Positions 40,825-52,782 of a DNA stretch of 64,000 nucleotides are shown in pieces. The stretch is from Escherichia phage vB_EcoM_LNA4. The stretch is taken from sequence record MZ311864.1, one strand, 5' to 3'. Made by a program: the position numbers and the translations under genes. How positions within the stretch are numbered: the stretch's first letter is position 1; each line of letters begins with the position of its first letter. The notes beneath the pieces are model-generated. The model was not told the DNA's origin. It did not search any database and saw nothing but the letters and a program-made list of their open reading frames with translations.

Positions 40825-42033
40825 TTAGTTCACGATTGCATCAACACCATCAGAGAAGTTCTTACGGTATTCTGTGATGATCTCCATGACAACCGGGTAT
40901 TTCTGGAGCAGTTTAGCAGGTAAACGCTCACGGTTCCCGGACATTAAGATCGCTTTACCGAAGGAGTTCTCCTGGATGAACGACATGAACACAGAACTAA
41001 CGAAGTCGCGGTTGGATGCCGTATCATGCTGACCGAAGTTATCATACATATACTTCAGGAAGTTCGCAGCGAACGCGATTACCTCATCGTCGGTATACTC
41101 TTTGTTCTGGATCGCCTTGCGTAACCAGATAGACCCCTGAGAGCCTAGAGTCCACAGGATATCCGAAGAGTCAGCACCCGTATGTTTGGTGAGTTTGCCA
41201 CTCATAACATCTTGGATAGAGACCATTTTGGAGATACGGGTATGGTATTCCCACAGTTCGTTAGCCAGAGGCTTACCGATACTGCCCTGCAACGATGCCA
41301 GAGCCAGACGAGCAGACAACAGGCCAGCGTCATAATCGTACAGAATATCACTTGCCGTTACCCAGGTGCGTGGTGTGGCGTATGAAGGGGAGTTAATCTC
41401 CAGCATCTCTTCATAGTTCTCAATCTTACCTGGGTTTGCGCTCACAAAACCAACAACCGATGGATGGACATCGTTGTGCATGGCGTAGTCCTGCAACCAG
41501 ACAGTCGTGTCGTAATCCAGTTCGACGAGGATCATACGGTTAGCTAGCGGAGCTTCCAGCATACTTACCGCAGTACCATCACCAGGGCGGTTGCCTGCAC
41601 CTGCAAACACCGCACCTGCCGGGAATTTGTATGTACCGATCTTGTGATCAAGCATGATCTGATAGGCAACTTTCTGGAGATATGGTTCCGCGTGTAGCAA
41701 TTCATCCAGGAATACAATACCCTTCCAGTTCGGGTCATCAGGCCAGAAGCTTGGAATAGCATACACAGTGCGTGTAATACCATTGTCGTCGGTTACGGGG
41801 ATCTGCACCCCAACAACGTCAGACGGTTCTTTATCCGCAAGACGGAAGTCGATCAGGTTATCGTCGCGGTCACCAAACATCATGTTGGCTACCTGCTTCA
41901 TTGCCTGGCTCTTGCCAAGACCTGCACCGCCAAACATCATCAGGGCGCGTCCACGACGCTGACAGAACTTCATCAGATCAGGCACATCCCGAAGCGTGAT
42001 ACGGTTCTCGTCAAAAATGTTACGACTCGACAT
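40825..42033 (-). CDS. AAA+ ATPase (MoxR/AAA_5-like)
   Basis: Walker A MFGGAGLGKSQ and Walker B VFLDELL; start at ATG after AAGGAG. Confidence 0.6.
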   Translation of the reverse strand: MSSRNIFDENRITLRDVPDLMKFCQRRGRALMMFGGAGLGKSQAMKQVANMMFGDRDDNLIDFRLADKEPSDVVGVQIPVTDDNGITRTVYAIPSFWPDDPNWKGIVFLDELLHAEPYLQKVAYQIMLDHKIGTYKFPAGAVFAGAGNRPGDGTAVSMLEAPLANRMILVELDYDTTVWLQDYAMHNDVHPSVVGFVSANPGKIENYEEMLEINSPSYATPRTWVTASDILYDYDAGLLSARLALASLQGSIGKPLANELWEYHTRISKMVSIQDVMSGKLTKHTGADSSDILWTLGSQGSIWLRKAIQNKEYTDDEVIAFAANFLKYMYDNFGQHDTASNRDFVSSVFMSFIQENSFGKAILMSGNRERLPAKLLQKYPVVMEIITEYRKNFSDGVDAIVN

Positions 42034-42262
42034 TAGTTTGTCTCCTTTGTTCAAGATAGTTTTCGATTATCCCCTCTACATCTCCGGGGTCGATATCATT
42101 GTATAGGGTATGGATTCTCTCTGCAAGGTCTTTCGGCAATAACTTATCTGTTTGATGCACCCTACCAGCACCAAAAACCACATACCATGCACGACGACTC
42201 AGGCGGTGCCGTTGACGAGGAACGTCCCTGTTAAAATCTAAAGGCTTCACTTCTCCACCCAT
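42020..42262 (-). CDS. hypothetical protein
   Basis: 80-aa ORF. Confidence 0.4.
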   Translation of the reverse strand: MGGEVKPLDFNRDVPRQRHRLSRRAWYVVFGAGRVHQTDKLLPKDLAERIHTLYNDIDPGDVEGIIENYLEQRRQTNVES

Positions 42263-42618: not shown

Positions 42619-43099
42619 TGGTTATTTTCCTCAATTCAAATTCGTCACCATACCCGATCATATGCCCTTTGGCAGTGATCACCTTTTCTCCGAACACGCT
42701 GCCAGTGCATTTACCAATGAAAACTTCCGGCATATCTTCCTCAGACAGGAGAATATCTACCTTGAACTTGCCTTGATAATGTCTAGCATTGTAATGTGGC
42801 CCTTTATCATCTGTCTTGTGCCAGCATTTGCCGTTCCAGCGATATTTATTGTGCTTGTACCATGTATATGATACCCAGTTATCCTGCGCTATATGGTCCA
42901 CCTGAACAGTAATCAGTCGTCCTGTGCTGCGAAGTAGATCGTCATATTGCTTTTCGTATAACTTCGCACGATTTTTCATATCGTTGTAATACTGTTGATA
43001 GCGATCCGCCCTGTTGACCATAACCTTGAGGATACTCTCGATTGGTGTGCCTTTCTCAAGATGTTCTTCATAAAGCTGTTTGCTTGATTTGATATTCAT
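42611..43099 (-). CDS. hypothetical protein
   Basis: 162-aa ORF. Confidence 0.45.
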   Translation of the reverse strand: MNIKSSKQLYEEHLEKGTPIESILKVMVNRADRYQQYYNDMKNRAKLYEKQYDDLLRSTGRLITVQVDHIAQDNWVSYTWYKHNKYRWNGKCWHKTDDKGPHYNARHYQGKFKVDILLSEEDMPEVFIGKCTGSVFGEKVITAKGHMIGYGDEFELRKITNG

Positions 43100-43308
43100 T
43101 TAAGCTCCTTAATGGATTCCAGGTCAAGGTAGTCATCACCACCCACCACTTTCCCGTCAGTTTTGCGATACTTTACGACTTTTCCGGTCTCTGAATGCTG
43201 GTAAGACATCCAGTAACGAGGCGTTTCGCGAAGTTTCTCAGTCCACGCCCAGCCGAGGCGGGGTTTTTTGACTGTACCTTTGTGGGTGTAACCTTGATTT
43301 CTGGACAT
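43096..43308 (-). CDS. hypothetical protein
   Basis: 70-aa ORF; overlaps 43173..43529 in another frame. Confidence 0.35.
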   Translation of the reverse strand: MSRNQGYTHKGTVKKPRLGWAWTEKLRETPRYWMSYQHSETGKVVKYRKTDGKVVGGDDYLDLESIKELK

Positions 43309-43529
43309 TCTTTGCTCCTGTATAGAGTCACTTTGTAAAGATTCTGATCGTAAATCAAAAAAGGCCTTGACACCGGACCGACAGACCTGTATCTACGATT
43401 CACCTGAATGTAGCCGCGCTCCTCCAACTTGAGAACGAGCTTACTTACTTTCCATGAAGGAATTCCCAGCAGGAACCCCATCTGTTTCTGAGTATACTTG
43501 TTTGTGCGGAGCAGTGTCAATAGATTCAT
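43173..43529 (-). CDS. winged-helix-like DNA-binding protein (3' end uncertain)
   Basis: N-terminal HTH-like segment; C-terminal part overlaps neighbouring ORF. Confidence 0.35.
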   Translation of the reverse strand: MNLLTLLRTNKYTQKQMGFLLGIPSWKVSKLVLKLEERGYIQVNRRYRSVGPVSRPFLIYDQNLYKVTLYRSKECPEIKVTPTKVQSKNPASAGRGLRNFAKRLVTGCLTSIQRPEKS

Positions 43530-44035
43530 AATTGCGACAGCATGTTGATTGCTTCGTGATGTTCTTTCATCTTTGTCAGACGAAGATACATGTCATGGTA
43601 CTTACGAATACGAAGCAAGTCTTTATCGCTAAGTCCTTTCAGACGACGAACATCAGAGTTGTGTCGCAGGTCTGCGAGCTTAACACGGATTGCATCGTAG
43701 TTTCTTGCAATACCCTGGAAATACTCCTCCGGTGTCTGATTTGGTGTTTTCGTCAAAAGAACCACAGCATCTTTAACACGATTAGAGAAGCCCAACAGCA
43801 CTAGGTCAGCAGCCGTCACATCGGTATCTTCCACCACATCGTGAAGAGCCGCGATAGCCATAAGCTGAAAATCATCGCTCTTCAGGTAGTGCATCACCTT
43901 TAGCGGGTGGAGGATGTAGGGGTTACCACCCTTATCTTTCTGATTCAGGTGTCCTTCTGCTGCAATCTTGATAGCCAGGGCAAGTTCTTGCGCCGGGGTT
44001 AAAACTGGAATCGTGGAATTGTAAGTTCGTACCAT
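43526..44035 (-). CDS. HD-domain (p)ppGpp hydrolase-like protein (RelA/SpoT-type)
   Basis: GHLNQKDKGGNPYILHPLKV and AALHDVVEDT HD motifs. Confidence 0.65.
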   Translation of the reverse strand: MVRTYNSTIPVLTPAQELALAIKIAAEGHLNQKDKGGNPYILHPLKVMHYLKSDDFQLMAIAALHDVVEDTDVTAADLVLLGFSNRVKDAVVLLTKTPNQTPEEYFQGIARNYDAIRVKLADLRHNSDVRRLKGLSDKDLLRIRKYHDMYLRLTKMKEHHEAINMLSQL

Positions 44036-45027
44036 CTTTGTTGCTCCATCATGTTAAAAGGTTTGATCTTGAGTGTATCAAAACCATCAATGTTGTCAAG
44101 CCAGAATTCATCTTTATATCCAGCCATTTCCATCATCATTAACTCTTCCGGGCTGGGTGTCTCCCCTGCCATCATGTTTCTGAGTCTTTCATCCCAGCGG
44201 AAAGTGAATAATGTCTCATTTTTATTGCAAATTAATAGTGCTTCACGGGCATTTTTAATCTTAACACTACGATCACGTAGATGAAACACACTGTGACCAA
44301 TGTGATTACACTGGACATCAAAGTTATCCCTGTCTCTGAAGTCACAAAACACCAGGAGATCACCGATAGACAAGGATATACCGAGAATATCAATATCGTT
44401 TTTAGACCTCTGTGTGAATTTCGATTCAAGACCGTACCTGCGGAACTCCGCATTGATGAAAAGATCTGGTTCACAACGGCCCATTTGTCTGATAAGGGGC
44501 TTCAACAAGCCGAGGAACTCTCTTGTACGGCTTGAAAATCTCCAGGCCGAACCCTTTGTAAGGGCATCACCATCCCCATGACCACGGATAATGGCTGAAA
44601 CATTTCCCCGCGATACCTCTTCCCGCTCGAAAGGACTTGAGGTAGAGGCTCTATCTCTGATATCTACCTCAAGACGGGCTAAAAACCGCCTATCAAGGCT
44701 CTCTCGTCGATAATCTCCCCAGTCACACCCCCAGAACCAAGAGAATGGGCCATTCCTTGTGTCTACTTTCTCAAGCAAGCACCTAAGTATTTCAGCAAAG
44801 GGGTTATCTTGCATCACCGTGGGGTTAAGCCTTGAAAGAAAGTCATCACTGTCCATTCTTGGCGTATCCCAGATACCCAGCATTGCCTTTTGACGGTACT
44901 GTTGTTCTCTTTGCCAATGTTCAATCAGGTCGCGAGTTGTCTGGTCATCTTTTAACATGCTCCAGTCTATATCAGCAGTCACCTTTGGGACGGCTACCTG
45001 TCGAACATCAATGTTGAATTTATTCAT
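43999..45027 (-). CDS. hypothetical protein (first gene of minus-strand operon)
   Basis: 342 aa from internal ATG; sequence upstream of that ATG is promoter-like. Confidence 0.5.
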   Translation of the reverse strand: MNKFNIDVRQVAVPKVTADIDWSMLKDDQTTRDLIEHWQREQQYRQKAMLGIWDTPRMDSDDFLSRLNPTVMQDNPFAEILRCLLEKVDTRNGPFSWFWGCDWGDYRRESLDRRFLARLEVDIRDRASTSSPFEREEVSRGNVSAIIRGHGDGDALTKGSAWRFSSRTREFLGLLKPLIRQMGRCEPDLFINAEFRRYGLESKFTQRSKNDIDILGISLSIGDLLVFCDFRDRDNFDVQCNHIGHSVFHLRDRSVKIKNAREALLICNKNETLFTFRWDERLRNMMAGETPSPEELMMMEMAGYKDEFWLDNIDGFDTLKIKPFNMMEQQRWYELTIPRFQF

Positions 45028-45090
45028 GTTTATCTCTCTCTCAAACAAATGTACACAAAGCATACACTGTAAAAAATTTGAAATCAAGTG

Positions 45091-45119
45091 TTGACAGTGT
45101 GGAAGCAATCCAGGATAAT
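45091..45119 (+). promoter_or_regulatory. sigma70-like promoter
   Basis: TTGACA-17 bp-GATAAT upstream of AAGGAG and the 45158 start; divergent from minus operon. Confidence 0.6.
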
Positions 45120-45157
45120 TCCCCCAACAAGAACGGGAACAACCCAAGGAGTAGAAA

Positions 45158-46063
45158 ATGTTTGATGTGAAAAAGAAATTTACCGCCAGTGAGATCAAAA
45201 GTCTAGAAGAACGTTATCGTAAAAAGGTTGAGCGCACAAAGAAACGTGGCCTTGAGTTCAGCCTGACGCTTGATGACTGGTTCATGATGGGTGAGAAGCT
45301 CTTAGGTATTGGCAAATGTGACTATACCAACATGGACTTTAGTATGCGCTCTGTGCATGGTGAGAAAGACCCTCTTTATCCAACCGTTGAGCGTATCAAT
45401 GATAAGAAAGGTTATGTCCGTGGTAACGTTTGTGTTGTCCTGCAACGCGCTAACGAACTGAAAGATTGCTTGGTTGACAAGAAGACGGCAATCACTATAA
45501 TTGAACCACTTGATCGTGAGATCGTTCAGGCAATGATGCTGAACATGTCAAAAGAGCATATGGAACAACTGAAACTAAAATATATTCCACAAGAGGAGAA
45601 AGAAATGCCAGTAGATACTTCTGTAGTTGTAGATAAAGTAGAGATTTCTGAAGAGCGCACCGCGTCTTCCGCAATGGAACTTGCTGAACAACATTTCCAC
45701 AAACAACCACCTACGGCAGAAGAAACCACTGCACCAGTGGAAGAAAAGCAGAAGCTTCCAGACGATGTTGCTGTGGCACTGGCCTACGCCAACTACTGCA
45801 AAACATTCTCTGATGCGGGTATGAACGTTTCTGTGACCTATGCACAATTTAAGGCGAAGTATATTCGCAACACCTGCTCTCTGACCGGAGAGAAGTTGTC
45901 TGGAGAGCCAAAGGCGATCCTTATCATGGATCTGAAAGTCGGTTTTGCTAAAGACAACTTCATTATTGTGTCGAAGAAAATGGAAACGGCGCTTACTCAA
46001 CTGATCATTCAGACAGAAATGAGCCTCCCTAAAATCACTGCGATGCTCAACAAGGTGGTGTAA
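45158..46063 (+). CDS. hypothetical protein with internally duplicated domain
   Basis: 301 aa; two related segments ending in G(Y/F)xxxN(V/F)x(V/I)V. Confidence 0.5.
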   Translation: MFDVKKKFTASEIKSLEERYRKKVERTKKRGLEFSLTLDDWFMMGEKLLGIGKCDYTNMDFSMRSVHGEKDPLYPTVERINDKKGYVRGNVCVVLQRANELKDCLVDKKTAITIIEPLDREIVQAMMLNMSKEHMEQLKLKYIPQEEKEMPVDTSVVVDKVEISEERTASSAMELAEQHFHKQPPTAEETTAPVEEKQKLPDDVAVALAYANYCKTFSDAGMNVSVTYAQFKAKYIRNTCSLTGEKLSGEPKAILIMDLKVGFAKDNFIIVSKKMETALTQLIIQTEMSLPKITAMLNKVV

Positions 46064-46323
46064 TGTACGAAGATATCCTGGGCCGACCCGCGTCGGCTCC
46101 TGAACAAAAGATGATGGACAGGGGATTCGTTCCCCCGTTCAAAGTTGGTGACCGGGTTTGTCTTGCTAATGCTCAGAATGTGGTATCAACCATTACTGCA
46201 ACGGTTTTGTTTGCTGTACCACCCAACCCGGTGCAGCCACAGCCAGCATTAACCTGGGGATTCCGGCTTGAAGGTTGGACAGATTTTTTACCAGGTGAAG
46301 CAATAAAACCATTTGCATCCTAG
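46063..46323 (+). CDS. hypothetical protein
   Basis: 86-aa ORF, start overlaps previous stop. Confidence 0.4.
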   Translation: MYEDILGRPASAPEQKMMDRGFVPPFKVGDRVCLANAQNVVSTITATVLFAVPPNPVQPQPALTWGFRLEGWTDFLPGEAIKPFAS

Positions 46324-46340
46324 CACACAACGTGTATAAT
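46313..46340 (+). promoter_or_regulatory. sigma70-like promoter
   Basis: TTGCAT-16 bp-TATAAT. Confidence 0.5.
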
Positions 46341-46381
46341 CAGGTCATCATTAGATGGCCTTTTTTTATTTGGAGAGAAGA

Positions 46382-47818
46382 ATGTATAAAGACGAATCGG
46401 AGATGATCTCCAAGCTACAAGATTCAGCCCTGAAGCTGATACAGTCAGCACGTATTGCATTACTGCAACATCGTCCATTTTACGGAACTTTGCTGAGTTC
46501 TTTGCCGATCATCGCAGACTGGAGATGGCTACCAACCGCTGCAACAGATCACCGACATCTGTACTATAACCCTGAGTTTATTATGGGGATGCCTGCCGAA
46601 CGCAAAAAGAAAGTCTTTGAGCGTATTGACAATCACCCCTCCATGACACAGCAGGAAAAAGATGACTACAAAGAGTATGTCAATGTTTTCTATCGAAAGA
46701 AGACACCAAAAGAGGTGGTAGTCATTCTGATGCACGAAGTTCGCCACATCACCAACGATCACATGGCCCGTGGGAAGAGCTTCAACTCAAAAATGTACAA
46801 CATTGCAGCGGATCAGTACATCAACACAGATTTAGTGGCTGTAGACCTTGGTCCAAGAAACACCTCATTGAAGTTCTTCCCGTTGGGAGCACAGACCAAG
46901 TTTGACAAAAACAAAGAATTTGGGTTCCTTGCGTACTGTTATTGTGATTTCTCATTCCAGAACAAGACAGCGGAAGAGATTTACGAGATGATTTACAATG
47001 GCAAGACAGTTGTTGGTCATCCTATGGGTGCTCATATTGGGGATTATGACCCCGAACGAGACATCCTGGGGTACGTAGACCCACACCCAAGCCTCGGTCC
47101 AATAGCTAAAGATGAGAATCTTGCATGGTCAGCGGGGCTGATTGACGCTGCAATGAGTGCAGCAGGCGGTGAAGGCCCGAAAGAGGCACGGGAATTGGTG
47201 GCAAGATCTCGTAAACCACACATTGATTACATGAAAATCATTAAACAGCGTATGGTCTCTCGTGTAAGATCTCACCTTTCTTACCGTAAACCAGCACGTC
47301 GATCAGGGTCTGTGACCCAAGTTCTGCGTAATTATGGTGCAATCACCCATAAGCAGAGCGTGATTTTGCCGGGAAGGAAGCAATCTGAGACAATTGACAT
47401 CGTGGTATGCTTCGATGTGTCTGGTTCTATCAGCCAGAAAACCATGACTCGCATCTTTAACGAGATTATTGGTCTGTGTACCCTGTATAAATGCTTCCGG
47501 GTAACACTTTTCTGCTGGTCAACCGAAGTTGGCGAGGTAAAAGTATACACCCAGGACAATATCAAGGAGATGCTGGACTACCATGTTACCTCCACAGGCG
47601 GTACACGGGCTGGTGTTGCGTTTGAATACATCGAAAAGAATATCCCTGATGCAAAAGATGTGATAATCTTTACAGACGGGTATATTGAAGATCTCAGTTC
47701 CCGCAAAAAGGACTGGGGTAAGATGTGGGATACACTATGGGTATTGTGTGGTCGTAACAAATCCAAGTACGACCCACCATTCGGGAGGGCAGTTGACTTA
47801 GATGAACACGCAAAATAA
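46382..47818 (+). CDS. metallopeptidase-like (HExxH) + von Willebrand A domain protein (DUF2201-like)
   Basis: LMHEVRHITNDH zinc-peptidase-like motif and C-terminal DIVVCFDVSGSIS MIDAS-like motif; start at ATG after GGAGAG. Confidence 0.55.
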   Translation: MYKDESEMISKLQDSALKLIQSARIALLQHRPFYGTLLSSLPIIADWRWLPTAATDHRHLYYNPEFIMGMPAERKKKVFERIDNHPSMTQQEKDDYKEYVNVFYRKKTPKEVVVILMHEVRHITNDHMARGKSFNSKMYNIAADQYINTDLVAVDLGPRNTSLKFFPLGAQTKFDKNKEFGFLAYCYCDFSFQNKTAEEIYEMIYNGKTVVGHPMGAHIGDYDPERDILGYVDPHPSLGPIAKDENLAWSAGLIDAAMSAAGGEGPKEARELVARSRKPHIDYMKIIKQRMVSRVRSHLSYRKPARRSGSVTQVLRNYGAITHKQSVILPGRKQSETIDIVVCFDVSGSISQKTMTRIFNEIIGLCTLYKCFRVTLFCWSTEVGEVKVYTQDNIKEMLDYHVTSTGGTRAGVAFEYIEKNIPDAKDVIIFTDGYIEDLSSRKKDWGKMWDTLWVLCGRNKSKYDPPFGRAVDLDEHAK

Positions 47819-48188
47819 GCTAATTGTTACAGGACTCACTGTAGATGTTGACTTTATGTACAGTGGGTCAATGGTCAGAATCGGTTTTCATGAGGGAAGA
47901 GACTACATTGAGTATCTGATCTCCTCTAATCGCCGTGCATTGTCCATTAAGAGATTCAAAAACGCCAGATGGGGAACCATAATTGAACCAGACTTCACTG
48001 TAAATCCTTTGGATATCAGTGACGAAGAGGATTTTATGGTGAGTATTCTTCCGGGAATGAATCATTTCGAGCGTTCTTTGTACAAAATGGCAGGTATTGT
48101 CGCGAAAATGTGGCATAACGATGCTGATGAGAACTATGCTCGGAACTACGTCATAGAGTATCTTAAGGATTACCTGGTGGCACCATGA
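47802..48188 (+). CDS. hypothetical protein
   Basis: 128-aa ORF. Confidence 0.45.
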   Translation: MNTQNKLIVTGLTVDVDFMYSGSMVRIGFHEGRDYIEYLISSNRRALSIKRFKNARWGTIIEPDFTVNPLDISDEEDFMVSILPGMNHFERSLYKMAGIVAKMWHNDADENYARNYVIEYLKDYLVAP

Positions 48189-48481
48189 GGATAGATAAGT
48201 CTTTCAGTGTGTTGTGCTCATATGGAATCCTGTCAAACCCGAAGGTCTCACCAACAGATCTTCGGGTCTATCTGTACATCAAGTTCAGGTGGCAGTTTTT
48301 CCAGAGTAAGGGGGCTGAGTTCGTAGAGTCTGTAAGCACCATAGCAGAGGCCGTCAGTATGAGTCCCAGAAGTGTGCAGAGGTCATTGAAGAATCTTGAG
48401 TCTCTTGGATACCTGGAGGTGGTTGAGAGGTCAGGGAAAACAAGCCTCTATATTCCGCTTGACGAACTGGTTAAGAAGTAG
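48185..48481 (+). CDS. winged-helix DNA-binding protein
   Basis: STIAEAVSMSPRSVQRSLKNLESLGYLEVVERSGK HTH-like segment. Confidence 0.5.
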   Translation: MRIDKSFSVLCSYGILSNPKVSPTDLRVYLYIKFRWQFFQSKGAEFVESVSTIAEAVSMSPRSVQRSLKNLESLGYLEVVERSGKTSLYIPLDELVKK

Positions 48482-48716
48482 CCAACCCCCGACAAAAACG
48501 TAGGGGGAGGGGTGACAAAAACGACCTACGATATAATAAAGAACTAAATAATAAAGAAACAAACAAATAAAATAAGATCTTTATAAAAAAGACTTGATCT
48601 AAAGATTTGTTAGTGTATAGTTGGTTTCAAGAGGAAGTGATGGAGCAACAGCGAAACACTTCAGATGTGTGTGGAAGTTCAATGTGCTCGGAGGCATGGG
48701 CGACAGGAGCTTCTAA

Positions 48717-49145
48717 ATGCGACGAATCAACTGGGGGCGGCGCGAAGCCGACAACAAAATGGTTAACATTAAACGTTCTATTCAGCGTCTGGTTCCACAG
48801 TACCGTGTTGTTACAAGCGGTTCCGATTGCTCTTGTCATATTGATGACGATTGTGATTGTATGCCTAGCCTGTATTTGACAGAGCGTGGTTGTACTGGTT
48901 TTGGTGGTGGTCACTGGACTTACACAGACGAAACCTGTCCAAAGTCTATCGACTCTTGGGGTAAGGCTTACTGGTGTGAGTTCCTGGGTTTACCTGGCTT
49001 CTGGGCGATGGGTGAAGAAGATGCAGCAGAAACTTTGCGAGATCGTCTTGACAGCATGTGCCAGTGTGCTAATATCAACGGTGTCAACAACAAACGTGCG
49101 GAAGCACTTATTGCAGAACTTAACTCTACAAAGGAGAATAACTAA
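48717..49145 (+). CDS. Cys-rich hypothetical protein
   Basis: 142-aa ORF with GGAG RBS. Confidence 0.45.
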   Translation: MRRINWGRREADNKMVNIKRSIQRLVPQYRVVTSGSDCSCHIDDDCDCMPSLYLTERGCTGFGGGHWTYTDETCPKSIDSWGKAYWCEFLGLPGFWAMGEEDAAETLRDRLDSMCQCANINGVNNKRAEALIAELNSTKENN

Positions 49146-49786
49146 TGTCATGGGCCTTTCTGATTTACTTAATTGATGTACTCACCACTGACGGTACTTA
49201 CAGCGGTTGGGGTTTCCTGATGTTCATCTTCGCCATTGCATACGGGGTCATGTATGCATTCCAGAAGTGCTATGAAGAAACTGACGGCAAGGTACGTTAT
49301 GGATTCTTCTTAGGTCAAAACTTGGTTCTTAACCAAGACTGGAACCACTTGAAGGCTGGGGAAACCATTGTTGTGACTAATATTGACAATGATGGTACGT
49401 TAAAGGTTCGATATCCTAACGGGGAGTCCTCTAATTGGCTGCGTTTTTCTACAGTAGAGCAGATCTCCGCCCAGCGACCTAACCCTGATGCGCCGCAAGT
49501 GCCTGTTCGTGACCTGACAAAAGGACCACGTAAGGTGGCAGTTGCAGGGCTGATCGTTTGCTTCCTCGGTATTCTGTATGCTAACTTTATGCCTCAGAAA
49601 GAGACTGCGTACAAGATGCTGGCTGCATATGTAGGTCAGAATGTGGTGGAGTCACCTCGTACTCAGCAACTGGCAGACAGTACGATCAAGTATCTTGATG
49701 CTCAGATCAAGAAGTACACAGACGAGCTTGATGCCACCGCTAAAGCAGAGCAGGCTGAGAAGGCCAAAGAGAAGGAGTCTAAATGA
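49145..49786 (+). CDS. membrane protein
   Basis: 213 aa, hydrophobic helices, charged C-terminus. Confidence 0.5.
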   Translation: MSWAFLIYLIDVLTTDGTYSGWGFLMFIFAIAYGVMYAFQKCYEETDGKVRYGFFLGQNLVLNQDWNHLKAGETIVVTNIDNDGTLKVRYPNGESSNWLRFSTVEQISAQRPNPDAPQVPVRDLTKGPRKVAVAGLIVCFLGILYANFMPQKETAYKMLAAYVGQNVVESPRTQQLADSTIKYLDAQIKKYTDELDATAKAEQAEKAKEKESK

Positions 49787-50121
49787 CAGGAATCGCTGAA
49801 CGCGTACTCCAGTCCTCAATCCGGGCGCAAGCCCGGACTGTTGATTCAGTCTTCAAGAACCTCGTAGAGGAAGTTGGGGAACTATCGCGAGCACTAAACC
49901 GCCCCTGGCGTTGTGATGAACCTGCAATTGGTGAAATTGCTGATGTTCTTAACTGTGTGATTGACTTGGCATTCTTGCTTGAGTTACAGGATTGTATCAA
50001 TCCTCGTGAGGATGATATGCCAGCAATCGTAGAAACAGTTCAACGCCGCCTTGAGCACTACGTTGATAAGAAGTGTGGCAAGTGGGATCGTTGTGAGAAT
50101 GCAGATCCGGGGGCGCTGTGA
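49783..50121 (+). CDS. MazG-like nucleotide pyrophosphohydrolase
   Basis: EEVGELSRAL and GEIADVLNCVIDLA motifs. Confidence 0.55.
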   Translation: MTGIAERVLQSSIRAQARTVDSVFKNLVEEVGELSRALNRPWRCDEPAIGEIADVLNCVIDLAFLLELQDCINPREDDMPAIVETVQRRLEHYVDKKCGKWDRCENADPGAL

Positions 50122-50462
50122 AGCCATTTGAAAGTAAGCGGATAGCGCTTGACTTCGATGATACCTTCACCCTAGACCCTCAAAGGTGGGCTGAGTTTGT
50201 CCACCTGTTCTGTTCTCGCGGGTCTGGTTGGTCGGTGAAGTTTGTTACCTTCCGACACGAAACGGATCGCAATGAAGACATCGAATACTGGGCTGAGAAA
50301 CTTGGCATTGACATCATCTACTGTGGTGGTGTACAGAAGGCTACAGTTTGTGCAAAAGCGGGTTGGGTTCCGGATGTCTGGGTAGACGACTTCCCAGCAC
50401 TGATCCCGATGAAACAACAACTCCAGGGTATGATCCTTGGCATAGAGAAGAACGGAGGATGA
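50118..50462 (+). CDS. HAD-like phosphatase (putative)
   Basis: IALDFDDTF DxDxT-type motif. Confidence 0.4.
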   Translation: MKPFESKRIALDFDDTFTLDPQRWAEFVHLFCSRGSGWSVKFVTFRHETDRNEDIEYWAEKLGIDIIYCGGVQKATVCAKAGWVPDVWVDDFPALIPMKQQLQGMILGIEKNGG

Positions 50463-50463
50463 T

Positions 50464-50610
50464 GTGGCGTATTACATTTTCAAGTTCTGGGAGAAGCTTT
50501 ATGACCTGAGCTACTTCTTGTTCGGCAACCTGCCGATCACATACGATGTAAAACATAAAATGAATATGGCTTGGATGAAGTATCAGATGAGCCAGAAGCA
50601 TGGTCAGTAA
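50464..50610 (+). CDS. small hypothetical protein (GTG start)
   Basis: GGAGGA RBS 5 nt upstream of GTG; 48 aa. Confidence 0.25.
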   Translation: MAYYIFKFWEKLYDLSYFLFGNLPITYDVKHKMNMAWMKYQMSQKHGQ

Positions 50611-50627
50611 AATCTGACACCACAATG

Positions 50628-50666
50628 CCCCGTAAAGCTCACCAATCGAGTTCTACGGGGTTTTTA
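50628..50666 (+). terminator. rho-independent terminator
   Basis: CCCCGTA...TACGGGG stem followed by TTTTT. Confidence 0.55.
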
Positions 50667-50734
50667 GCATGTAAGGTAGGCGAACGTACAGCCTTTGATT
50701 AGAAACGCTCAGAAGAGCTTACAGGAGCTTTTAG

Positions 50735-51559
50735 ATGACTACAGTATTTCATACCACAGAGATCATTCCCCACAACAAGAAACGTTTTGATGTTCCGGAC
50801 ATCGAGACAGACCTGAAAAAGATCTATGAAAGCACAGAGCATGAGCTATCATATCTTGAGTTTTCAAGTGATCCTGATGATGAGACTGACTTTGATAAGC
50901 AAAAGGGCAAGGTGGAGTCGGAGCTTGAAGAACTTAAGTCCTATGCAAAGAGTTCTGAGATTGCTGATTACCAGGCCTACGTTGAGGCGCTTGAGCGACA
51001 GATTGAAGCCCTGACATGGAGCCTCCTCAATGTTGCTCGCCGTGCTGATAACATGTCCCGTGATATTGTATCACTCGACAACAGAATGGACAGGACGGAG
51101 ATTGCAGACGAGTTTGACTACATCGTGGGAGATGCCCTCAACGAACTTGGGTGCGAAATGCCTCTACGCAGATGTCTCCAGGAGCGTGGCTGGAATGAGT
51201 GGCAAAGGGATTACCTGAACAGTATCATCCCCACCAACAGGGCCATAGAGCTTTTGGTTCATGCAAGTACACCAAGTGAAATGGTTCTCGGTATTGATAG
51301 CTGGATTTCAGTGCAGGATGACCGTGTAACCATCATAAATGGCGATGACCGCATCCACATTGGCAAAGCGTCTGATGAGATTGCTATCCATACGTTCATA
51401 GATGGTAAAAGTTCTTTTTTCCTGACGGCAGACCTGAAAGATATTTTCATGGACATCCTTCATCCAACTGACGAAGAGATTCAGATGTATGAGATGGCCC
51501 ACCACAAGAGCTATGATATTTGTATGTGGCGTGATATTTTCGGCAAGAAACCCGAATGA
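50735..51559 (+). CDS. hypothetical protein
   Basis: 274-aa ORF; RBS lies inside the repeated GCTTACAGGAGCTTT element. Confidence 0.5.
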   Translation: MTTVFHTTEIIPHNKKRFDVPDIETDLKKIYESTEHELSYLEFSSDPDDETDFDKQKGKVESELEELKSYAKSSEIADYQAYVEALERQIEALTWSLLNVARRADNMSRDIVSLDNRMDRTEIADEFDYIVGDALNELGCEMPLRRCLQERGWNEWQRDYLNSIIPTNRAIELLVHASTPSEMVLGIDSWISVQDDRVTIINGDDRIHIGKASDEIAIHTFIDGKSSFFLTADLKDIFMDILHPTDEEIQMYEMAHHKSYDICMWRDIFGKKPE

Positions 51560-51623
51560 AAACTGTGTGATATTTGCCCTTGATATTTGTCAGGGCATTT
51601 TGAACTGGAAACCAAAATGAAAA

Positions 51624-51650
51624 TCGAAATGGTTTTCGAAATGGTTTTCC
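51624..51650. repeat. tandem CGAAATGGTTTTC repeat (x2)
   Basis: cgaaatggttttcgaaatggttttcc read directly. Confidence 0.6.
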
Positions 51651-51827
51651 TTTCAGGTGTCCTGGTAAATCCATTTTATTGTGAGTTAAGATCTCAAACC
51701 CTCCGACAAATTATCTCAAATCTCCCAGCGCAACATGCTGATTGTTAAGGAAATTCACAGGCACGAATGCAGTAATTATGTCAAAATTCCAGAAATGCTA
51801 AATCCATTTTATTGGTTGTTAAGTCTG

Positions 51828-52033
51828 GGTACTCGATCACTTTTTCGATTTAGGAATCGTATTTTTTCTACACCGTTCAAAAAATTTTTCTAGGTAGAGA
51901 TCGGGTTCTCGATCGATTTTTCAAAATCGAGATCGTATTTTTTCTCGCTATCGAAAAAATTTTCGCGCCCGGTTCTCGATCGACTTTTCAGTTTCAAAAA
52001 CGTATTTTTTCTATACACGCGAAAAAATTTTTT
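51828..52033. repeat. three tandem direct repeats of about 65 bp (iteron-like)
   Basis: GGT(A/T)CTCGATC..TTTTTC....CGTATTTTTTCT......AAAAAATTTT repeated three times. Confidence 0.7.
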
Positions 52034-52408
52034 GGGATCAATAATTTTCTCACACACGCACACGCGATGTCAAGATAAATTTTTATGTTGAATGGGAAGC
52101 ATTCTCATTTAGCTTTTTGAATGATAATCATTCTCGTTTGCAGAATGACGGGCACCCCCGGTGTTTTGTACTCCGGTTTCAATGTTCCCGCTATGTCATA
52201 ATAATAGCATAGCCAGCCCCAGGATCAAGCGGCTTTACAAATCTTTACAAATCTCAAAAGTCCGAACTACCGGCGATTCACCTTCCGACCTGGCACCCGC
52301 GCCCGGTACGTTAGCCCCGCCTTTTCGCCGTGGGGTGGCGTTTTCTCTTCTGTCTGATAAATATAGCCCAGGGCCGCACGGATTGCAAGCCCCAGGACAA
52401 AATATTTT

Positions 52409-52600
52409 TTAGTCTTCCCGGCTATCCCATAACACCGCGCCGGACTCACTCACTGCCTTTGTGCCATAGTAAAACCCGGACACGCTCGCACGTTCTGCAA
52501 ACGGCAAAGGAACGATCCTAACCTGGGGCGCTCCGCGCTCACTCTCCCAGGTGTACAGGGTTACCATTGTTTCGCTTGCAACTACTTTCCCGTTTGCCAT
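52409..52600 (-). CDS. hypothetical protein (early-type gene on minus strand)
   Basis: 63 aa; GAGAGGTAAACGAAATG signature as in plus-strand early genes; TTGCAT..TATAT promoter-like upstream. Confidence 0.45.
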   Translation of the reverse strand: MANGKVVASETMVTLYTWESERGAPQVRIVPLPFAERASVSGFYYGTKAVSESGAVLWDSRED

Positions 52601-52703
52601 TTCGTTTACCTCTCTTGTGTGTGTCCTTATATAGTACACGATCCCCGCCGGGATGCAACCACACCGGGCAAAAAGATTTTTAAAATATTTGCATCCAGGG
52701 GTA

Positions 52704-52732
52704 TTGACGGTAATTAGTAAAGCGTTTACTAT
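52704..52732 (+). promoter_or_regulatory. sigma70-like promoter
   Basis: TTGACG-17 bp-TACTAT. Confidence 0.55.
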
Positions 52733-52782
52733 TCATCTCATCAGGGCGACACACCGCCGCCCACACTCAAAAGGTAAAGCAA

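Follow-up and report, generated by a model that had tools for sequence, protein, structure and literature searches.

An Aph1-like small alarmone hydrolase and a distant MazG-like/HAD-like gene pair in the early region of a Seunavirus genome

The small alarmone hydrolase (SAH) of Salmonella phage PVP-SE1 neutralised all five validated toxSAS toxins (CapRel, PhRel2, FaRel2, PhRel and FaRel) and was called a stand-alone phage SAH (Jimmy et al. 2020, PMC7229694). Four of the five toxins pyrophosphorylate tRNA at its 3'-CCA end, and SAHs reverse this modification (Kurata et al.). Here we describe a close relative of this hydrolase in a 64,000-nucleotide stretch of Escherichia phage vB_EcoM_LNA4 (MZ311864.1), referred to below as the window. 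A sequence-only reading of the window had grouped this HD-domain protein with a MazG-like and a HAD-like enzyme, all encoded between positions 43526 and 50462, as one coordinated set of hydrolases for (p)ppGpp-type alarmones or signalling nucleotides. We find it likely that the region is instead made up of two independent early-gene modules, the first of which carries an SAH predicted to be of adenosine type.

Two characterised hydrolases offer further points of comparison for the SAH. Aph1, a (p)ppApp hydrolase encoded by a temperate phage (a prophage of Bacteroides caccae), provides immunity against a (p)ppApp synthetase toxin that is fused to MuF. For Ahmad et al. (2023, PMC10083569), membership in the Aph family rested on homology to residues Y90-E143 in the C-terminal part of Aph1, a stretch that leaves out the HD motif, and they defined a signature of six residues, D24, R96, D116, R119, K133 and Y134, with R96 lying outside the active site. 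All 12 purified Aph1 homologues hydrolysed ppApp, and an Aph1 D24R/R119A double mutant gained ppGpp hydrolysis, which was seen only when both residues were mutated (PMC10083569). The second, ATfaRel, is the antitoxin of FaRel in Cellulomonas marina; it counteracts every toxSAS class and allows pyrophosphorylated tRNA to be aminoacylated again. Jimmy et al. (PMC7229694) place ATfaRel in the PbcSpo subfamily, to which the window SAH also belongs, and we liken the two by description.

For the MazG-like protein, the closest described systems are also small phage proteins of the all-alpha NTP-pyrophosphohydrolase type that, like it, carry an EExxE...ExxD motif. One is Atd1, a MazG-like pyrophosphatase from the Certrevirus PcCB7V, a Pectobacterium phage that belongs to the Vequintavirinae, as does the window phage; Atd1 depletes (p)ppGpp and blunts the toxicity of TIR effectors (Ho et al., bioRxiv 10.1101/2022.06.09.495361). 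The other is a cyanophage MazG (Rihtman et al. 2019), cited as an enzyme that does not hydrolyse ppGpp. Published substrates differ among MazG-like members (ppGpp versus dGTP/dCTP), so a function cannot be transferred from them to the window protein. For the HAD-like protein, the comparison is with capless (C0-type) HADs such as the 3'-phosphatase domain of T4 Pnkp, KdsC and the Corynebacterium protein 2PR7.

The window phage and its relatives are members of Seunavirus, subfamily Vequintavirinae (PVP-SE1/GAP31/EC152-like). A megablast search with positions 43000-51000 gave Enterobacter phage EC152 (99% coverage, 93.7% identity) and Cronobacter phage GAP31 (94% coverage, 92.8% identity), followed by Escherichia phage 4MG and the Salmonella phages PVP-SE1 and SSE121. 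The region lies in the early part, rich in small genes, of a myovirus genome of about 148 kb. The four open reading frames (ORFs) singled out by the sequence-only reading are all present at exactly the coordinates it gave. Each is conserved as a protein across many phages, which identifies them as real genes rather than chance ORFs.

A small alarmone hydrolase of probable adenosine type

The HD protein (43526-44035, minus strand) is a single domain of 169 residues with no synthetase, TGS or ACT domain. Its best match in the PDB was Aph1 (7SMG; E = 4.5e-26, residues 18-159), followed by the hydrolase domains of Rel, RelA and SpoT (E = 3e-10 to 1e-7) and by MESH1 (E about 3e-7). It also matched the NCBIfam family TIGR00691 (spoT_relA; E = 4.5e-15) and phrog_990 (E = 2.3e-67). 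To judge conservation, we used a 72-sequence alignment of phage homologues taken from 71 loci, which came from the best 80 of 199 stretches in a scan of IMG/VR. In this alignment the metal ligands of the HD motif and the ED catalytic pair (H43, H65-D66, E69-D70 and D122) do not vary, and conservation is 99% at K119 and N126. The RelA/SpoT hydrolase motifs claimed for this protein are therefore present, and the concern that the HD residues might vary among homologues was not borne out. Homologues occur in 255 phage records, led by phages of Aeromonas, Streptococcus and Klebsiella.

PVP-SE1 encodes a single SAH homologue, 92.9% identical to the window protein over all 169 residues, and it is because there is only this one that we equate it with the SAH tested by Jimmy et al. 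As in the window, the PVP-SE1 gene (gene 220) directly follows a p342 homologue (gene 219; p342 is the 342-residue protein discussed below) in a phage of the same genus. By its sequence, the HD protein is thus best described as a genuine RelA/SpoT-homologue (RSH) SAH of the hydrolase-only, PbcSpo/Aph1-like kind and an orthologue of the PVP-SE1 SAH. The published data concern plasmid-borne toxSAS neutralisation by the PVP-SE1 protein, from which the window protein differs at about 7% of positions. As the SAH hardly differs from the PVP-SE1 protein, on which experiments have already been done, this content was largely known before and the locus brings no new enzyme class; overall, the region holds mostly ordinary, already-described phage accessory genes.

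What the comparison adds is an expectation about substrate. In a HMMER alignment, Aph1 D24, D116, R119, K133 and Y134 correspond to D34, D128, R131, K145 and Y146 of the window SAH, so that all five of these signature residues are kept, including the two (D24 and R119) that exclude ppGpp in Aph1. Among the phage homologues the five are conserved at 83%, 51%, 82%, 57% and 97%, respectively. When the C-terminal 69 residues (101-169) were searched alone, 7SMG was the sole PDB match (E = 1.2e-4), in parallel to the way in which Ahmad et al. delimited the Aph family. With five active-site signature residues kept and a C-terminal region that matches only Aph1, a preference of the adenosine type is to be expected, and adenosine 3'-pyrophosphates, namely (p)ppApp and the 3'-pyrophosphate on tRNA A76, are predicted to be more likely substrates than ppGpp. 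The assignment of the HD protein to the RelA/SpoT-type hydrolases is supported, with an orthologue that neutralises toxSAS toxins in E. coli, while the description of its substrates as (p)ppGpp-type calls for refinement in view of the signature. The similarity to Aph1 extends over nearly the full length and includes the HD and ED catalytic residues. There are also differences: the window SAH has about 17 extra N-terminal residues and a glycine, G108, at the position of R96; it has no recognisable synthetase gene beside it; and it is encoded by a large myovirus of virulent type.

In the mechanism that we favour, the SAH would be a metal-dependent HD-domain 3'-pyrophosphohydrolase (Mn2+ is the metal in characterised relatives) that most likely strips the 3'-pyrophosphate from adenosine-type substrates. 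These would be (p)ppApp from toxic synthetases and tRNA whose 3'-CCA end has been pyrophosphorylated by toxSAS enzymes (for example CapRel, FaRel2 and PhRel). Such an activity would shield translation and the ATP and purine pools of the infected cell from toxSAS-type toxins and abortive infection. Phage SAHs are plausible counter-measures to toxSAS-type defences, for example those that, like CapRel, pyrophosphorylate tRNA, and to toxins that synthesise (p)ppApp; for the Seunavirus SAH, the signature predicts adenosine over guanosine specificity.

Several observations weigh against this interpretation. The Pfam HD_4 model scored below threshold (21.3 bits against a gathering cut-off of 27.2). 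The sixth signature residue is not kept: Aph1 R96 aligns with G108, in a column that holds arginine in 36 of the 72 phage homologues. ATfaRel, of the PbcSpo subfamily, degrades both ppGpp and ppApp, so adenosine specificity of the window SAH is not guaranteed. We found no published in vitro enzyme assay of either the window or the PVP-SE1 SAH, the published test of the latter was neutralisation of plasmid-encoded toxicity rather than a phage infection, and a literature search returned no defence system reported as countered by this SAH during infection.

An SAH domain is also found in a different setting in Certrevirus CB7. There, CB7_104 (locus L083, 14126-15367, plus strand) is an ORF of 413 residues in which the SAH domain forms the C-terminal part. 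Its N-terminal ~230 residues resemble an HNH/AP2 homing endonuclease by eye, and Pfam gave only a weak HD_4 match. CB7_104 is either a fusion or the product of a mis-called start.

The MazG-like and HAD-like pair

The other two genes lie on the plus strand, separated from the minus-strand p342/SAH pair by 5.7 kb and eight genes. The first encodes a MazG-like all-alpha NTP pyrophosphohydrolase of 112 residues (49783-50121). It matched phrog_1247 ('MazG-like pyrophosphatase') with E = 3.7e-33, and the family is found in 317 phage records, led by Klebsiella and Aeromonas. Residues E29, E30, E33, E51 and D54, which make up the EExxE...ExxD metal motif, are invariant in 22 homologues and align with those of SSO3215 (1vmg). 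A profile of the family gave PDB matches with E = 0.01-0.4, to 1vmg (0.0099) and 2gta (0.039) and also to 5ie9, 2q73 and 7ody. The match to the Pfam MazG model (PF03819) was marginal, at E = 2.2e-4 and 21.8 bits, just below its cut-off of 22, and all 22 homologues gave weak matches, the best at E = 2.2e-4. Taken together, the motif and the profile matches make membership in the MazG superfamily a sound prediction.

We asked how this protein relates to Atd1 by way of CB7, a sister phage of PcCB7V. CB7_173 (L083 45661-45921, minus strand) is a protein of 86 residues with an EExxE...E..D motif and a weak match to PRA-PH, a family of the MazG clan; it sits two genes from a nucleotidyltransferase gene, CB7_175, and is probably the CB7 counterpart of Atd1. 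With CB7_173 standing in for Atd1, BLASTP produced no alignment to the window MazG-like protein, hhalign put the probability at 0.5%, and the two proteins have only the EExxE motif in common. We therefore rejected the identification of the MazG-like protein with Atd1. A search of the window for a second MazG-like gene of the CB7_173/Atd1 type found none.

The second gene of the pair encodes a protein of 114 residues with a GTG start (50118-50462, plus strand). The DxDxT motif noted in it is real (D12-x-D14-x-T16). D12, D14 and T16 (motif I), T44 (motif II), K74 (motif III) and D90-D91 (motif IV) are invariant in 11 close homologues, and motifs I-IV are likewise invariant in a ten-sequence alignment that spans phages of Vequintavirus, Kuravirus, Moazamivirus, Vibrio and Pseudomonas and reaches down to 27% identity. 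A distant homologue from a Vibrio phage carries the InterPro HAD signature IPR023214. Searches of the window protein against the Pfam HAD families with E up to 1 gave no match (only a weak one to DUF6679), and neither the single sequence nor a profile of close homologues matched the PDB. A broader profile recovered HAD-IIB phosphatases at non-significant E-values of 0.12-0.41, in register over motifs I and II.

In the AlphaFold2 model of the 114-residue protein (pLDDT 75) the motif residues sit where strands 1, 2 and 4 end and at the N-terminus of a helix, as in HAD enzymes. Capless HADs have the same order of motifs I-IV with the same placement on secondary structure, and the model would share their Rossmann-like three-layer fold. 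The phage protein is shorter than any HAD enzyme that it matched, and its model has only four core strands. Foldseek searches with the model gave nothing significant, and the matches were too weak to indicate a subfamily. From motif conservation and the predicted fold, this is a probable minimal HAD-type phosphatase. It belongs to a widespread family of 343 phage records, mostly from Escherichia phages, that keeps all four HAD catalytic motifs and whose listed members are nearly all annotated 'hypothetical protein'. At the level of superfamily, then, both the MazG-like and the HAD-like assignments of the sequence-only reading stand, and both proteins are probably active enzymes that would act on nucleotides or phospho-metabolites.

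The two ORFs overlap by 4 nt as GTGA, the GTG start codon lying at 50118 and the TGA that ends the MazG-like gene at 50119-50121, so the proposed translational coupling agrees with the window sequence. It does not extend to the closest relatives, EC152 and GAP31, which have an extra ORF of 204 nt between the two genes. We compared this junction in the window (49783-50462), L001 (10077-10950), L002 (GAP31, NC_019400; 9760-10633) and L086 (1666-2345). Adjacency of the two genes holds in 4MG and in Mydovirus and is confined to Seunavirus and Mydovirus, while in Vequintavirus, Kuravirus, Moazamivirus, Vibrio and Pseudomonas phages the HAD-like gene has no MazG-like gene next to it. The window MazG-like protein is 99% identical to that of GAP31, whereas the HAD-like protein is 99% identical to that of 4MG and only 74% identical to those of GAP31 and EC152. 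This split in identity, together with the extra ORF in EC152 and GAP31, suggests that the junction is a mosaic that arose by recombination at the boundary between the genes.

One role that can be imagined for the pair is in nucleotide pools that serve phage DNA synthesis rather than in signalling. The MazG-like enzyme would convert canonical or aberrant (d)NTPs into monophosphates, and the HAD-like enzyme would dephosphorylate a nucleotide or the 3' end of a nucleic acid. The invariant catalytic motifs of both proteins leave room for such a role, and we hold it as a tentative explanation, somewhat less probable than not: the adjacency of the two genes is confined to two genera and is interrupted in EC152 and GAP31, and the fold matches of the HAD-like protein are too weak for assignment to a subfamily.

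The proposal that the SAH, the MazG-like and the HAD-like protein act jointly, to lower host (p)ppGpp, suppress the stringent response and clear signalling nucleotides, fares worse. It has precedents: (p)ppGpp hydrolysis was the activity by which the SAHs of the RSH superfamily were originally defined, ATfaRel degrades (p)ppGpp besides ppApp, Atd1 is a phage MazG-like protein that depletes (p)ppGpp, and the same combination of SAH and MazG was proposed in a recent Pseudomonas phage genome paper. Against it stand D34 and R131 of the SAH, whose equivalents in Aph1 exclude ppGpp; the lack of detectable similarity between the MazG-like protein and the presumed Atd1 equivalent; and the cyanophage MazG, which is cited as not hydrolysing ppGpp. 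The genes are, moreover, in divergent transcription units, and their families do not co-distribute among phages. Since the two pairs lie on opposite strands, with 5.7 kb, eight genes and a divergent promoter region (near 45030-45157) between them, they do not form one unit. We consider joint action on (p)ppGpp unlikely, and the three enzymes should not be handled as a set. The two-module interpretation would thus pair a minus-strand, translationally coupled run of p342, SAH and p118 (a protein of 118 residues) with a plus-strand module, 5.7 kb off, in which a MazG-like NTP pyrophosphohydrolase is coupled to a minimal HAD-type phosphatase.

p342, the partner gene of the hydrolase

Upstream of the SAH on the same strand lies the gene for p342 (43999-45027, minus strand; 342 residues), whose stop overlaps the SAH start by 37 nt. 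The SAH start codon (ATG) has its own GGAG 8 nt upstream, and no terminator-like site was found on the minus strand between the two genes. From the overlap, the GGAG and the lack of a same-strand terminator, co-transcription of the two genes, as the sequence-only reading had it, is a sound inference. We also considered whether the SAH might be made as a frameshift product of p342, as its frame is -1 relative to that of p342. This idea was rejected because a slippery heptamer is missing from the 37-nt overlap and the SAH starts from an ATG with a Shine-Dalgarno sequence of its own. At its other end, the SAH gene overlaps the gene for p118 (43173-43529, minus strand) by 4 nt as ATGA, the ATG of p118 (43529) overlapping the SAH stop codon TGA (43528-43526), which makes p118 the third gene of an overlapping run.

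The p342 family is tiny. A profile hidden Markov model search found 13 representatives among 1.84 billion proteins, and the family comprises 9 clusters in 5.8 billion proteins. We found no match for p342 in Pfam (9 family members searched, E up to 1), NCBIfam, PADLOC or the PDB (single sequence and profile), nor in a fold search with its predicted model. The RefSeq/PHROG label 'thymidylate kinase' finds no support: the family has no conserved Walker A/P-loop and no Pfam, NCBIfam or PDB match. The best-conserved part of the protein is its C-terminal ~50 residues, with the invariant motif TPxxEELMMMEMAGYKDEFWLD...IKPFN, where the AlphaFold2 pLDDT is 25-40.

In every locus of Seunavirus, Mydovirus or Av-05 type that we examined, the end of a p342 homologue coincides with the SAH start or lies no more than 37 nt from it. 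In Erwinia-type phages the ORF in the p342 position is a remote homologue (hhalign E = 7e-5, with the C-terminal motif in common); a search of IMG/VR with two remote relatives (P0058 and P0060) and with the conserved motif gave no new loci. Across the 66 phage records that contain a p342 homologue, most of the listed rows with usable annotation have an SAH beneath the end of the match. Compared with loci of Mydovirus type, the SAH is the best-conserved protein of the neighbourhood (89-91% identity) and p342 has only 32-33% identity; the corresponding values are 62% for the MoxR-type ATPase, 66-67% for the VWA protein and 77% for the Srd-like protein encoded nearby. By sequence, p342 is thus a rare, fast-evolving, lineage-restricted family that always stands in front of an SAH, and its obligate pairing with so conserved a hydrolase is the one unexplained feature of the locus.

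Three Seunavirus-like Salmonella phages, GEC_vB_MG, vB_Sen_SG_WM_SEW_6S and vB_Sen_SG_WM_RUS_R7, depart from this arrangement. Their similarity to the window begins only at about 44672; they retain no more than the first ~119 residues of p342 and lack the SAH, so that the hydrolase gene and the greater part of p342 seem to have been lost in a joint deletion.

We consider p342 most simply as a fast-evolving, lineage-specific partner of the SAH, and what it would do beside the enzyme can be pictured in several ways. One possibility is an adaptor or targeting subunit that guides the SAH to its target, either pyrophosphorylated tRNA or a host toxSAS; another is a direct inhibitor or decoy of a host defence protein, with the SAH as an enzymatic back-up; a third is a phage effector with a product kept in check by the SAH. 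In such a module the invariant C-terminal motif would serve as an interaction surface, though this part of the protein is modelled at very low confidence. That p342 and the SAH, perhaps joined by p118, could work as a functional module not described before is an idea we put forward with considerable doubt.

A toxin-immunity or effector-antidote pair comparable to FaRel-ATfaRel or Apk2-Aph1, in which the SAH would neutralise the product (for example, a 3'-pyrophosphorylated one) of p342 acting as a cryptic toxic enzyme, is very improbable: the conserved overlapping arrangement with the SAH directly downstream, the known role of SAHs as enzymatic antitoxins and immunity proteins beside synthetase toxins, the rapid divergence of p342 and the joint loss in three Salmonella phages would all suit it, but p342 resembles neither RSH synthetases nor any toxin family of Pfam, PADLOC or the PDB and gave no fold match, a single deletion would be enough to explain the joint loss, most phage SAHs (255 records) occur without p342 (66 records), and the PVP-SE1 SAH was described as stand-alone.

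The N-terminal half of CB7_104, the CB7 ORF that ends in an SAH domain, is HNH/AP2-like and has no similarity to p342, and we rejected this possible fusion as a link between p342 and the SAH.

Gene layout and neighbouring genes

The gap of 130 bp between p342 and the next gene (45028-45157) is a divergent intergenic region that parts the leftward p342-SAH transcription unit from rightward ones. It contains a sigma70-like promoter on the plus strand (TTGACA-17-GATAAT, 45091-45119; 11 of 12 consensus matches), and we found no minus-strand promoter of comparable quality within 45028-45157. No tRNA genes were found in the window.

At the far end of the p342-SAH run, p118 belongs to phrog_23131 and is possibly a winged helix-turn-helix protein, with three sub-threshold matches to Pfam models of this kind (E about 0.02). 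It lies downstream of the SAH in only some relatives. An ORF of 70 residues (43096-43308, minus strand) overlaps p118 by 136 nt in another frame, both being 89-97% conserved among relatives.

The SAH operon is flanked on one side by a MoxR-type ATPase gene (40825-42054, minus strand; phrog_1297), annotated MoxR in EC152 and GAP31, and on the other by a gene (46355-47818, plus strand) for a protein with a DUF2201 metallopeptidase-like and a VWA domain (Pfam E = 2.5e-24 and 1.1e-12). These two genes are a phage MoxR-VWA pair. CB7 has a MoxR gene (CB7_108) and a large ORF, CB7_110, at the corresponding position, both in one direction and downstream of the SAH ORF.

The first rightward gene after the divergent gap, which the promoter at 45091-45119 precedes, encodes a protein of 301 residues (45158-46063, plus strand). 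Its PHROG matches include 'decoy of host sigma70', 'Srd anti-sigma factor' and HNH/endonuclease VII, and it is annotated as an anti-sigma factor in relatives. A perfect promoter consensus (TTGACA-16-TATAAT, 12 of 12 matches) lies within its coding sequence, at 45474-45501.

Several gene names given to this region in RefSeq records of Seunavirus, including that of GAP31 (NC_019400), look like propagated PHROG labels that lack support; besides 'thymidylate kinase' for p342, the VWA protein is called 'HNH endonuclease' and small early ORFs are called 'tail protein' or 'Rz-like spanin'. Downstream of the MazG-like/HAD-like pair, about 1.2 kb (51560-52780) contains no ORF longer than 83 residues and carries several promoter-like and terminator-like sites on both strands.

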